A stretch of DNA of 36,150 bases from a virus (lineage: Duplodnaviria > Heunggongvirae > Uroviricota > Caudoviricetes). Where the stretch lies: the IMG/VR virus record IMGVR_UViG_2534682139_000010. One strand, given 5' to 3'. Below, one piece after another: positions 27,001 through 33,000 of this stretch; position 1 is the first letter of the stretch; every line of letters begins with the position of its first letter. The position numbers are program-made.

Positions 27001-30000
27001 CCTGCACAGTCTTTTTGTTCAGTTCCGTTACTTCTGCCAGTGCAGATACAGACGGGTATGCACACAAATCGGCACCGCACATATCAGCAAGCCAGGTCAA
27101 TACTGACTTACTGGATGAACTGCCGGTTTTCACCTTTTTAGCCCATCGTAGCGCATCGATACTCATACGAACCCCAGACAGATATTTGTTTATCTGCAAA
27201 GTAATGTTGGTATTGCTGACGATACGCACGCTTGAAAGCAATAGCTTTTTCTATAAGTTCGTCAGTCTCACGTTCCACAACAGCTGGATCCGCAAAAAGT
27301 AGCCCTGACTCCACCACATCGCCATATTCTTTGTTTAACCCGGCGATCATGTACGTAATGCTTTTTCCGTCAGTAATTTCACGATACAACCTGAAATCAC
27401 TGATCCGGATAGCCGCCATAATTGCCGGAATCAGCGCCGTGAATTTTTCCCGCTTATCCCTGGTGTCGATAGATTTCCAGCGTTCGAATATCTTCACCCG
27501 GTTAACGCCCAGCGCCCGTTGATCAACCGCGCCATCATCAAACGTGACGCGTTGAACATCGATGTTCGGGCGTTCTTTCAGAGCCCAGAATGCTTCCGTG
27601 ATTAATATCGTCGCCTGCTCCTGTGTCATTCCTGGTCGGCATACCCAGGCATCCAGAGCCTCACAAACCTGTTCAGGGGTGATTTTCATTGTTCAACCGC
27701 CCCGCCCGCTTTGCCTTACGATATTCGTCATAAACTTTGGGGTCGTACTGAAGTTCCCCGCCGGATGCCTCTTGCAGGCGCATCGCGCGACCTTCAGGAA
27801 CCAGTTCCCCCCATGCAGCAATGCTTGCCAACCTAACTCCTGCGGCATTGGCAAGCTTTGTTTTGCTGCCAAAAAACGCTATAGCATCAATTTTCAACAT
27901 ATCGAGCTCCTTAGATTTTCCTAAGGAAACTAGATCGTAGAGAAACCTAAGTCAAGAAAAATTAGAATTCCCTAATATGAAAAACGAAACCTTCGGTGCT
28001 CGCCTCTTACATAGGCGTAAAAAATTAAAACTGTCTCAGGCCGCATTAGGTAAGCTGGTCAAAGTGGCTCACGTAACAATTTCTCAATGGGAAAGAGATG
28101 AAACACAGCCGGCGGGGAAAAGATTATTCGCACTGAGCCAAGCGCTTCAGTGCTCACCGACTTGGCTTCTTTTTGGGGATGAAGATAAACAACCAGGCGA
28201 ACCGATCCCGAATAATCAGCCAGCCATTCTGACAGAAGATCAAAAAGAGTTACTTCAACTGTTCGACGCACTGCCTGACTCAGAGCAAAAGGCCCTGTTG
28301 TCAGAGATGCGTGCTCGAGTTGAAAATTTCAACAAACTTTTTGAAGAACTACTTAAAGCTCGCAAAAGAAGCGCAAACAAATAACCCCTTTTTTCTCCAC
28401 ACCCTGTAATAAAAAGCACAAACTTTCAAACACTTGTGTTTTTTACACCAAAAAACTTAGGTTTTTCTACATAAGAATCTTGACCATATGCCTTAGGTTA
28501 TTCTAAATTTCACTCATCAAGACACCGCACGGTGTTCTCAGCAAACAGTTCCGCTACTCCGGCGTTAAGGGGAAATGAGGTCAGCATGGATACTATCGAT
28601 CTTGGCAGCAACGAATCTCTGGTGTACGGCGTGTTCCCAAACCAGGACGGCACGTTCACCGCGATGACGTATACCAAAAGCAAAACGTTTAAAACCGAAA
28701 ATGGTGCCCGTCGCTGGCTGGAAAGAAACTCAGGTGAGTGATATGGATTTCGACACAATCATGGAAAAGGCTTACGAAGAATACTTCGAAGACCTTGCCG
28801 AAGGCGAAGAGGCTCTCAGCTTCAGTGAGTTTAAACAGGCGCTTTCCAGTTAGGCAAAATCTAACGGCTGATAAGCGAAACAGCACCGCGAGGAATCAGT
28901 ATGCATAAACGAGAACCCGTCATCATCGCGCCAGACTATACCGATGATGAACTTTATGAGTGGATGCGCCAGAAAATTAATGCAGCGCAGGATCTGAAAT
29001 GGGCCAATGAAGCCAGGGCTAAGCAGGCTGAAAAATCTGTCCGCTCTGGAGCAGGATATCACCAATTTGGAAAAAGCAGCGGCATTAAGCATTGCCAGAA
29101 TGATTACATACCCGCGTTAATAGCTAACCAACGAGGATAAGGTTGGTAATTAAGGAGTTCTCTACGGGTCAGGTGGAGTGCGTGCGCCGGACACGGGTGA
29201 GCATCCGGCACGTTCTTTAAAAATCTGGATAGTCCCAACTTATTTAAACGGTTAATTATCTTGAGTTCATCCAGAACTTATTATTGCAAGCGGGGCAAAA
29301 AGTACGAAAATGAGCATCAAAGCGCATTATTTCCATTGGTTGCAGTGAACCGCCCCGGAAATCCTGGAGACTAAACTCCCTGAGAAAGAGGTAAACAGGA
29401 TGACTAAAAATACTCGTTTTTCCCCCGAAGTCCGTCAGCGGGCGATTCGTATGGTTCTGGAAAGTCAGGATGAATATGACTCACAGTGGGCGGCAATTTG
29501 TTCCATTGCCCCAAAGATTGGCTGTACGCCGGAGACTCTGCGTGTCTGGGTTCGCCAGCATGAGCGGGATACCGGGAGTGGTGATGGTGGACTCACCACC
29601 GCTGAACGTCAGCGTCTGAAAGAGCTGGAACGTGAAAATCGTGAACTGCGCCGCAGTAACGATATCCTTCGCCAGGCTTCCGCTTATTTTGCGAAGGCGG
29701 AGTTCGACCGCCTCTGGAAAAAATAATGCCACTGCTGGATAAGCTGCGTGAGCAGTACGGGGTCGGACCGGTATGCAGCGAACTGCATATTGCCCCGTCA
29801 ACGTATTACCACTGTCAGCAACAGCGACATTATCCGGATAAACGCAGTGCCCGTGCGCAGCGCGATGACTGGCTGAAGAAAGAGATACAGCGCGTATACG
29901 ATGAAAATCACAAGGTATACGGTGTGCGTAAAGTCTGGCGTCAGTTGTTACGGGAAGGTATCAGAGTGGCCAGATGCACTGTGGCACGTCTCATGGCGGT

Positions 30001-33000
30001 TATGGGACTTGCCGGTGTTCTCCGGGGTAAAAAGGTCCGCACTACCGTCAGCCGGAAAGCCGTTGCCGCATGCGACCGCGTAAACCGTCAGTTCGTGGCA
30101 GAACGTCCAGACCAGTTGTGGGTGGCTGATTTTACCTGGGTAAGCACATGGCAGGGCTTCGTTTATGTGGCGTTCATCATTGATGTGTTCGCCGGATACA
30201 TCGTGGGATGGCAGGTCTCATCATCCATGGAAACAACATTCGTGCTGGATGCACTGGAGCAGGCGTTGTGGGCCCGTCGGCCGTCCGGCACAATCCATCA
30301 CAGTGATAAAGGTTCTCAGTATGTATCGCTGGCCTACACGCAGCGGCTTAAGGAAGCCGGATTACTGGCATCAACAGGGAGTACTGGCGACTCGTATGAC
30401 AACGCGATGGCGGAGAGCATCAATGGTCTTTACAAAGCGGAGGTAATACACCGTAAGAGCTGGAAAAACCGTGCAGAAGTGGAACTGGCCACACTCACGT
30501 GGGTGGACTGGTATAACAATCGACGATTGCTGGAAAGGCTGGGCCATATTCCTCCGGCAGAAGCAGAAAAAGCTTATTATGCTTCCATCGGAAATAATGA
30601 TCTGGCAGCCTGAGTTCACAGATAAAATACTCTCCAGGAAACCCGGGGCGGTTCACAGTACAGATATTACCTTTTTTCCAAAACATTGTGGGCAAAGATG
30701 CACTGTTATCTCGGTATCGCCTATAAATTGCTTCTTGGAATACACAAGAGTTCCAGAATCAAGCTTGTTAAGTTTGTAACCTTCCGCCTGTTGCTGAAAG
30801 TCTTCTATCTCTGCAATTTTTGCTTTGAGAGATGCGGCTTCTTCCTGATAAGAGCGCACCATCTCAATGAGCGATACGCATTCAAACTGAACAGACGTAA
30901 GTTTTGAAAGCATATCGCTGACAGCGGAATTTATCTCAGTTTGAGTTTTGCATTCAGAATACCCTTTGCCATTACCGCAGTTTCTTTGATTGCCGACATT
31001 GCTGCTGAGAACTCAACTATCACGTTACATACTCTTCTCGTTGTTGGGGATATCCAGATTATACAAATTTCTTGTTGTTGGGGAATAACAGGAACCACCT
31101 CGCCTGACGTGGTTAAAAGCAGGCACACAACGCGAAAGCGTACGGCGAGGTAGCTGGTTCATAGATAGCCTGTCGTTAAATTTTCGTCGACCGTGCGCTT
31201 CCGGTTGTGGCAGTCCGCGAAATGGCGCGGCGGTAAGTATGGCTGGGGTTTCCTCCATTGCTCCAGAAAATGCACCGGGTTGTCAGGTTGACCATACGCT
31301 TAAGTGACAACCCCGCTACAACGCCCTCTGTTATCAATTTTCTGGTGACATTTGGCGGTATCAGTTTTACTCCGTGACTGCTCTGCCGCCCTTTTTAAAG
31401 TGAATTTTGTGATGCGGTGAATGCGGCTAAGCGCACGCGGAACAGTTAAAACCAAAAACAGTGTTATGGGTGGATTCTCTGTATCCGGCGTTAATTGTTA
31501 ACTGGTTAACGTCACCTGGAGGCACCAGGCACTGCATCACAAAATTCATTGTTGAGGACGCGATAATGGAAACGTTATTACCAAACGTTAATACGTCTGA
31601 AGGTTGTTTTGATATTGGAGTTCTGCTCAGTAACCGGGAGTTTACTGAAGATGCCATTAAGATGAGAAAATATGAACCTTATCTTCTTAATGATAATTCC
31701 ATACTTTCCAGAATTGCCCTTCTTGAACTTGGTATTATCGGAGAACAGCAGTGACTTCAGCGTTTGCACTGATAATGACCGTTTTTCTTATAACGGGTGA
31801 GCCGCAGAATGTGATTACCGGAATTTATTACAGTAAGTCATCCTGCATTCAGGTAAGGGACGAACAAAAAATCCCCGGTGAATGCCTCCCGTTAAAAAAA
31901 GTATCGCTGTACCTGAATAACGAAACACCGGCTGGATAACCCGCCAGCCATATTAACGCCATACCAACGGATTAAAAATGCCAGCAATGGCAGGAATTTG
32001 TTCATCCTTAAAATGGTTATGAGGTTTATCAATGAACGCTGATAAAGAAGAAATTGCACTATATTACGAAGCCAAAAATGACAAAGTCAGAAAACGCCTT
32101 GGGATTAAAGGTGGTTTTTACTGGCGCACAGCAAAAAAATTATCGGTTGCAATATCACGTGGTGTTGCTGCAATGGACGATGCCGGATTTGACGAAGAGG
32201 ATTTTAAAAAACCCATCCGCGTCCATTTACCCGTTGTGAATGACCTTCCACCGGAAGGTGTGTTTGATACTGAATTCTGCAACCGATACGAAAAAGGCGG
32301 AGAAGATGGTATCACAATGATACTTATCGCGCCCTCTGTTCCGGACAAACCAGCCAGTACTGACAATACCAACGTCAACGGCGAAGACATGGCTAAGATT
32401 GAGGAGAATATGCTTCTTCCGGTTTCAGGTCAGATTCTGCCTGTTCGCTGGCTGGCGCAACACAACAGCGAAAAACCGCTCACGCACGTTTCACTGGACA
32501 AACTGCGCGCATTACATAACGCACAGGATGAAAAACTTCCCGCCGTTACCGCGCTGGCCATCTCAAATAAAGCAGTGCAACTCGAACCGCTGGAGCTTCG
32601 GGATTTGTACAAACTGGTGCGAGACACTGACAAAGTTTTCCCCGCCCCCGTAAATTCGGACCTGGGACTGATGACCTCTTTTATCGAAGCATACCTGGGC
32701 GCTGACTACACCGATCGCGGTCTGCTTACAAAAGAGTGGATGAAAGGAAATCGTGTTTCACGCATCAGCCGCACGCCATCCGGCGCTAACGCTGGCGGCG
32801 GCATTCTTACCGATCGCGGCGAAGGTTTTGTCCACGATGATGCGTCAGTGGCGCGTGACGTAGCCACTGGCGTACTGGCCCGTTCAATGGACGTGGATAT
32901 TTATAACCTTCATCCCGCGCACGCTAAACGCATTGAGGAAATTATCGCTGAAAATAAACCGCCATTTTCTGTGTTTTTCAGCAAATTCATCACCATGCCG

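Follow-up and report, generated by a model that had tools for sequence, protein, structure and literature searches.

The window analysed here is the whole 36,150-nucleotide (nt) virus record IMGVR_UViG_2534682139_000010. On its minus strand, positions 29256..31023 very probably hold a pseudogene of a Rip1-family antiphage defence gene, carried in a decaying Qin-like lambdoid prophage of O103:H2-type Shiga-toxigenic Escherichia coli; intact members of the family would act as Rip1 (ring interacting pore 1) pore-formers. The gene is broken twice, by an older frameshift of one base pair (bp) and by a later IS629-type insertion sequence (IS) in the cysteine domain, and either lesion alone should, from the sequence, abolish function. 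With no intact reading frame for the protein, the window does not carry a functional member of the family. As far as sequence can tell, it is a pseudogene of an already known defence family, of which it represents a divergent subfamily, and not a new protein family. The parts of the pseudogene and of the insertion are as follows (ORF, open reading frame; aa, amino acids).

29256..31023, minus strand: whole Rip1-family pseudogene, with GTG start at 31023 and TAA stop at 29256-29258
30931..31023, minus strand: 5′ stub of 26 correct codons (VIVEFSAAMSAIKETAVMAKGILNAK), then out-of-frame LKLR and a stop
30656..30913, minus strand: first 86 codons of the 114-aa ORF, with CPQC; residues 38-123 in the numbering of the 151-aa protein
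29256..29345, minus strand: last 28 codons and stop (QPMEI...CPAC...NSR, stop), including the left CAG copy as complement of codon L123
29346..30655, plus strand: IS629/IS1203-type IS3-family element, 1310 bp, read from sequence
29400..29726, plus strand: orfA of the element, 108-aa ORF
29726..30613, plus strand: orfB of the element, 295-aa ORF
29343..29345 (left copy) and 30656..30658 (right copy): CAG target-site duplication flanking the IS

The minus-strand ORF that opens at ATG 30913 ends ...VISVL, and its stop codon (TGA, 30655-30653) is the terminus of the IS. With the IS and one CAG removed, the frame runs on for 28 codons (QPMEIMRFDAHFRTFCPACNNKFWMNSR, then stop) to the TAA at 29258-29256, and the reconstructed ORF encodes 114 aa with two cysteine pairs, CPQC and CPAC. 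An earlier note on this DNA had proposed precisely this split gene and its repair to 114 codons across the 3-bp duplication, and both proposals hold, as do its coordinates. The probability that a 28-codon frame stays open by chance is not small, (61/64)^28 or ~0.26, and the decisive evidence comes from alleles in other genomes.

Relationship to the Rip1 family

Homologues of the 114-aa protein extend down to E 1e-69 and are nearly all 145-175 aa long, and intact E. coli alleles encode 151 or 170 aa, so the earlier view of a ~114-aa protein as the gene product does not stand. Judged by these comparisons, the 114-aa ORF is not a whole gene and covers only the 3′ three-quarters of one that encodes 151 aa. 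In an alignment of 40 sequences the family has a conserved N-terminus, MIAELSAAMxAIKETAGLAKVINDAKT..., and four invariant cysteines (C111, C114, C139 and C142) that align with the CAQC and CHRC of the Rip1 protein of phage HK446. The IS insertion point lies between the two cysteine pairs, inside the motif L123-Q124-P125, which is also invariant in this alignment.

The earlier note recognized no family for the protein, yet one exists, with a solved structure and a published mechanism. The PHROG profile phrog_1244, labelled ‘unknown function’, matches the 114-aa form with E 3.5e-38, starting at profile position 39 of 157, and matches the repaired form end to end with E 2.3e-48. The HK446 Rip1 chain matches the same profile end to end with E 6.9e-51. 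Searched as a single sequence against the PDB, the protein has one real match, chain L of entry 9OOX (HK446 Rip1 bound to the small terminase of phage T6), which is annotated ‘ring interacting pore 1 (Rip1)’ and is found with E 4.9e-6. A profile of 40 full-length homologues strengthens this match to E 3.1e-17, covering profile positions 6-148 of 156 and residues 16-157 of 164 with the four cysteines aligned. Searches of phage genomes with tblastn identify hkaP of HK620, HK629 and HK630 (30% identity) and gp30 of the Pseudomonas phages JBD30, DMS3, MP42 and JBD69 (25% identity; E 3e-9 for JBD30 gp30). An exhaustive profile search returned 2375 cluster representatives at E<=1e-3, 701 of them at E<=1e-10; the best 150 of the 2375 are almost all 145-175 aa long and match end to end.

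The predicted structure agrees with the sequence comparisons. An AlphaFold2 model, built from homologue P0002 (which carries a spurious, disordered 35-residue N-terminal extension) together with 39 others, has a mean predicted local distance difference test score of 74, rising above 90 over the C-terminal half. It contains two long helices (33-64 and 68-120) followed by a small β domain of six strands, in keeping with the long helix and four-cysteine ribbon that had been anticipated from the sequence. In a Foldseek search of the PDB at E<=1e-3 the only matches are 9oox_L and 9oox_M, with E 1e-6, probability 1.00 and TM scores of 0.52-0.70. The term ‘zinc ribbon’ is descriptive only for the four-cysteine domain, and metal binding is putative: the best scores to Pfam zinc-ribbon families (Zn_ribbon_19, DnaJ_CXXCXGXG and others) are 11-16 bits against cut-offs of 22-33 bits. 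JGI labels two homologues ‘predicted nuclease with TOPRIM domain’, which we rejected for lack of Pfam support.

A review summarizing Patel et al. (Nature 651:1060, 2026; PMC13434031) describes Rip1 as a single prophage-encoded protein that is not toxic alone. Escape mutations map to the portal protein in Pseudomonas phages and to the small terminase in E. coli phages, and in cryo-electron microscopy an 11-mer ring of small terminase is encircled by 12 copies of Rip1. Rip1 contacts the ring with its C-terminal half, and its N-terminal part is an amphipathic helix. Pore formation by the complex makes liposomes leak dye and perforates cells, and an infected cell therefore dies before the phage matures (PMC13434031). 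Elsewhere Rip1 is cited as a small terminase subunit sensor (PMC13601566).

An intact relative of 151-170 aa begins with a conserved helix, continues with a long second one and ends in a β-rich domain held by the four invariant cysteines. By analogy with Rip1 of Pseudomonas phages and HK446, from which we carry the mechanism over by homology, the gene would be transcribed in the lysogen from a promoter of its own, and its product would be harmless until a superinfecting phage produced ring-shaped portal or small-terminase oligomers. At that point the C-terminal domain would gather around the ring and the N-terminal helices would open a pore in the inner membrane, killing the cell before the phage could mature.

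Several observations weigh against extending Rip1 identity and function to this subfamily. Scans of the 114-aa protein against Pfam, NCBIfam and PADLOC (2023) gave nothing above threshold, and these collections have no model for the family; the family assignment therefore draws on the PHROG 1244 and PDB matches and on the fold. Enterobacterial members are only 22-30% identical to the characterized Rip1 proteins, a hydrophobic-moment scan finds the N-terminal helix only moderately amphipathic (0.16-0.39), and the AlphaFold2 model, being a monomer, is silent on ring binding and pore formation. The intact enterobacterial members could thus be superinfection-exclusion proteins that have the Rip1 fold and act differently, for example by binding rings and blocking packaging without forming a pore, or by responding to another trigger. 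The low identity and modest amphipathicity are compatible with such a protein, as is the long-standing annotation of HK620 hkaP as only a ‘putative superinfection exclusion protein’. However, the homology is full-length and includes the N-terminal helix, architecture and length are uniform in the best 150 of the 2375 cluster representatives, and Rip1 proteins as distant as those of E. coli phage and Pseudomonas both use ring-shaped triggers, according to the review (PMC13434031). We consider a different mode of action unlikely and favour Rip1-like pore formation for the intact relatives.

The frameshift, the insertion and their order

The GTG 31023 frame of the window reaches a stop after 30 codons. 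Between 30949 and 30950 a single base has been deleted, where intact alleles read AATGCCAAAACT or GACGCAAAAACG and the window reads AATGCAAAACT. The deletion puts the first 37 conserved codons out of frame, and residues 1-37, which are lost as a consequence, correspond to the conserved N-terminal helix. Without the IS and one CAG the pseudogene measures 455 nt, compared with 456 nt in intact alleles, and adding one base at 30949/30950 to the IS-free sequence yields a clean 151-aa protein.

We examined these lesions in a survey set of 5426 complete E. coli genomes. The 788 nt rebuilt without the IS are 100% identical to IS-free loci in O103:H2 strain 12009, O45:H2 strain FWSEC0003 and others, 12 complete genomes in all, and the IS-free allele predicted earlier therefore exists. 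RefSeq annotates its 345-nt coding sequence (CDS) as ‘hypothetical protein’ WP_001399959.1 (114 aa). Five complete genomes carry the IS at exactly the same site: O103:H2 FWSEC0007 and CEC12044, UTAK-14, O103 WL1467 and O121 WL1277. FWSEC0007, in which the 86-aa stub is annotated WP_001443597.1, is a close relative of the window, not identical to it and with a different arrangement of IS copies. Aligned with the DNA of strains KFu019 (WP_001546009.1) and GB089 (WP_000559912.1), whose RefSeq records have CDSs of 456 nt (151 aa) at the same place, the window and three O103-type IS-free loci all lack this base. Alleles ~98% identical in nt to that of the window encode the full-length gene, and intact alleles of 151-170 aa are also found across the Enterobacteriaceae.

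The flanking ydfC/dicF sequence is present in ~4000 of the 5426 genomes, and the insert that carries the Rip1-family gene in only ~64. Seventeen genomes match the 5′ region of the window at at least 99% identity over the same length and were taken to carry the deleted allele (12 without the IS, 5 with it). In seven, the allele is closely related but has one more base; it was taken as intact and confirmed by alignment in KFu019 only. Five carry a variant allele, annotated as 170 aa in the one genome inspected (RM11911). By subtraction, ~40 carry a GB089-type allele, checked as an intact 151-aa CDS in GB089 alone. No surveyed genome has the IS without the deletion, and the IS is present in only 5 of the 17 deleted alleles, indicating that the frameshift preceded the IS. 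The presence of the same deletion in all IS-free copies of the allele likewise indicates that the IS struck a gene that was already frameshifted. The earlier suggestion of co-variation with dicB and dicF is unlikely, because the flanks are about 60 times commoner than the insert.

These alleles bear directly on whether the 114-aa ORF could instead be a complete, genuine gene for a coiled-coil and zinc-ribbon protein of unrecognized family, inactivated by the IS only. RefSeq does annotate the 114-aa CDS exactly in IS-free genomes, and a 90% identity cluster of 38 member sequences (P0001) exists for this form. Against this, ATG 30913 corresponds to residue 38, a position at which Met is not conserved, and the N-terminus conserved in the family is encoded out of frame in the preceding 111 nt, where one added base restores it. 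Close alleles and the members in all other genera encode 151-170 aa, and the 114-aa form itself belongs to the Rip1 family. We therefore find a complete 114-aa gene very improbable and return to the twice-broken Rip1-family gene.

Least probable of all is that the 114-aa product is kept because it is useful (as a ring-binding, non-lethal packaging inhibitor or a dominant-negative partner), or that -1 slippage of tRNA-Lys on A-AAA-C restores low-level full-length protein: the deletion does leave GCA AAA CTC, on which a -1 slip at AAAA would give the exact wild-type ...NAKTQTE..., and 12 genomes have no other damage in the 114-aa frame, but there is no seven-base slippery site at the deletion (a downstream stimulatory structure was not searched for), no recognizable Shine-Dalgarno sequence precedes ATG 30913, and the IS destroys the 114-aa product in the window anyway. 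The absence of further decay says little, since the alleles of the 17 carriers, which are O103:H2, O45:H2, O103 and O121 isolates and strains of unseen serotype, are identical or nearly so.

With the double inactivation of a Rip1-family gene established as our preferred reading, WP_001399959.1 (114 aa) and WP_001443597.1 (86 aa) can be relabelled as fragments of a frameshifted Rip1-family gene, and the intact 151-170-aa genes in prophages of E. coli, Salmonella, Citrobacter, Enterobacter, Klebsiella and Edwardsiella can be named Rip1 relatives. In O103:H2, O45:H2 and O121 genomes with this allele, the defence gene is dead, and it was not the IS629-type insertion that killed it. The practical value of the finding is small.

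Upstream module, insertion element and prophage context

The gene and the sequence immediately upstream of it occupy a defined position in the prophage, with the following features.

29209..31128: insert relative to the Qin prophage of strain K-12, with edges good to ~+/-15 bp
31024..31125, minus strand: conserved upstream module, defined by conservation, travelling with the gene
31124-31120 and 31106-31102, minus strand: hairpin arms in the module
31083-31074 and 31049-31040, minus strand: direct repeats CCCCAACAAC, flanking TATAAT at 31063-31058
31039-31032, minus strand: purine-rich GAGAAGAG before the GTG start
31340..31391, plus strand: DicF small RNA gene (Rfam RF00039, 77 bits, full length)

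Gene and upstream module together form a small, self-contained insert of ~590 bp (IS excluded), which replaces ~32 bp of the K-12 ydfC-dicF spacer. A hairpin at ~29185-29208, downstream of the gene, was rejected as part of the insert because K-12, without the gene, also has it. With ydfC upstream, dicB downstream and DicF likewise on the plus strand, the pseudogene is antisense to the dicA-ydfABC-dicF-dicB operon, as the earlier note had recognized. The same antisense orientation relative to the surrounding phage operon is seen at every locus examined. In HK620 the gene lies between N/hkaQ and cIII/kil, and in JBD30 it is flanked by the large-terminase gene terL and by gp29, which codes for a DNA-binding protein, presumably the small terminase; in Enterobacter prophages and PhiR29 it is found beside cI, and in a Salmonella prophage beside ydaT. 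At all of these loci, as in the window, it is a single prophage-borne gene without partner genes, situated in an early or a packaging region. In KFu019 the dicA/ydfA side of the operon has a small antisense insert of another kind (L005, 1010..1210), whose product is annotated as an ‘ECs_2282 family putative zinc-binding protein’.

The ~100-nt module is conserved in 34 distinct upstream sequences from ~135 loci, and farther upstream the sequences are unrelated. A nearly identical block precedes hkaP-type and HK446-type genes though their proteins differ greatly, and the block is conserved across subfamilies with only ~30% protein identity. Other copies are located at 886-1000 in loci L100 and L115 and at 1341-1455 in loci L116 and L141; the module is absent upstream of Pseudomonas JBD30 gp30. 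Its hairpin has 5-6 bp (GCCTG...CAGGC) and is replaced in two lineages by CCGGG...CCCGG, a compensatory change. A -10-like hexamer separates the repeats, which lie 34-35 bp apart and change in concert: both read CCCCAACAAC in the subfamily of the window and CCCCTACAG in the hkaP and HK446 subfamilies.

We infer from the TATAAT/TAATCT hexamer and from conservation that the module may be the promoter and leader of the insert. A sigma-70 scan called no promoter upstream of the gene, and Rfam at E<=10 gave no family for the module apart from a meaningless lncRNA match. Tentatively, and with low confidence, the module could be a dedicated regulatory unit travelling with Rip1-family genes in enterobacterial lambdoid phages, perhaps keeping the pore-former on in the lysogen and off when the early operon on the opposite strand fires. 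Such gating, if real, would prevent the terminase and portal rings made by a prophage from setting off the Rip1 that it encodes. Two other elements were considered and rejected: a pseudoknot with a second stem (AACCAC/GTGGTT) interleaved with the hairpin, which retains 3 of 6 pairs in the two lineages with compensatory changes, and a 13-codon leader ORF (TTG...TAA just before the GTG), which is present in the window allele and not conserved in other subfamilies. A 77-aa ‘hypothetical protein’ annotated by RefSeq in some genomes (WP_071529670.1; 31025..31258, minus strand) overlaps both the module and the spacer between ydfC and dicF; it looks like an annotation artefact.

The element at 29346..30655 has the features of the IS3 family: a length of ~1.3 kb, inverted repeats, a 3-bp duplication, and orfA and orfB with a -1 frameshift pseudoknot (ALIL, Rfam RF01497, at 29681..29797, 120 bits). 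Both inverted ends open with TGAACCGCCCCGG, reading inward. Its 98.2% identity to O157:H7 copies that RefSeq assigns to the IS1203 family makes ‘IS629-type’ a fair name. The element shares with IS629/IS1203 the 1310-bp length, the TGAACCGCCCCGG termini, the 3-bp duplication, and orfA/orfB with the ALIL pseudoknot, but it is not identical to the O157:H7 copies, and the RefSeq label at the same site in FWSEC0007 is only ‘IS3 family transposase, programmed frameshift’.

Four IS629-type copies are present in the window, at 4872..6180, 8973..10282, 29346..30655 and 34883..36150, the last cut by the window end; the duplications that flank the copies are ATG/GATG, CAC and CAG. Relative to the copy in the pseudogene, identity is 100% over 1268 bp for the copy at 34883, 99.5% for that at 4872 and only 96.5% for that at 8973. 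The first two values suggest recent transposition. The element in the pseudogene has the orientation of the ydfA-ydfC-dicF-dicB operon and lies between the upstream genes of that operon and dicF. To judge from this position it may be polar on this copy of DicF and DicB; because it separates dicF/dicB from the promoter region of the operon, its effect on DicF expression may outweigh that on the split gene.

The prophage of the window sits at ydfJ, like Qin, and is decaying. Its ydfC is split into two overlapping frames (28901..29140) and is annotated ‘frameshifted’ by RefSeq in both O103:H2 12009 and FWSEC0007; strain 377323_2f has an intact ydfC beside the same Rip1 allele. An 805-aa exonuclease gene (32032..34320) has a 1-bp deletion at ~34176 relative to O103:H2 12009 that reduces the product to 762 aa. 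The IS copy at 34883 falls in what is the integrase region in 12009, and the prophage looks immobilized.

Comparison with known systems

The gene shares with Rip1 of HK446 and the Pseudomonas phages its membership of PHROG 1244, full-length homology and length class (151 versus 164 aa), as well as N-terminal helices, a long helix and a C-terminal CxxC...CxxC domain. In both cases a single prophage gene runs opposite to the surrounding operon, and 9OOX is the only PDB entry that the predicted fold matches. The two differ in location: the gene described here is flanked by ydfC and dicF in an early operon of Qin type, whereas the Pseudomonas genes lie between terS and terL and the HK620-type genes between N and cIII. 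They also differ in sequence, with the 22-30% identity noted above, and in state, the present copy being inactivated by the frameshift and the IS.

The HK620 gene hkaP (NP_112049.1, ‘putative superinfection exclusion protein’) is 30% identical over 94% of the length; a literature search found no data on its function. It too is antisense, in the early-left operon of a lambdoid phage, and is preceded by a near-identical ~100-nt upstream module, complete with hairpin and a pair of direct repeats flanking a -10-like hexamer. Unlike the gene in the window, hkaP is intact, starts with ATG instead of GTG, and has CCCCTACAG repeats in place of CCCCAACAAC.

Like the rexAB genes of phage lambda and the sieB moron of P22, the gene is a small self-contained unit between conserved phage genes near the immunity region, and intact relatives would presumably likewise be expressed in the lysogen, where the death of the infected cell would keep other phages out. 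The gene is unrelated in sequence to both systems, and in the Rip1 model one protein serves as both sensor and pore.

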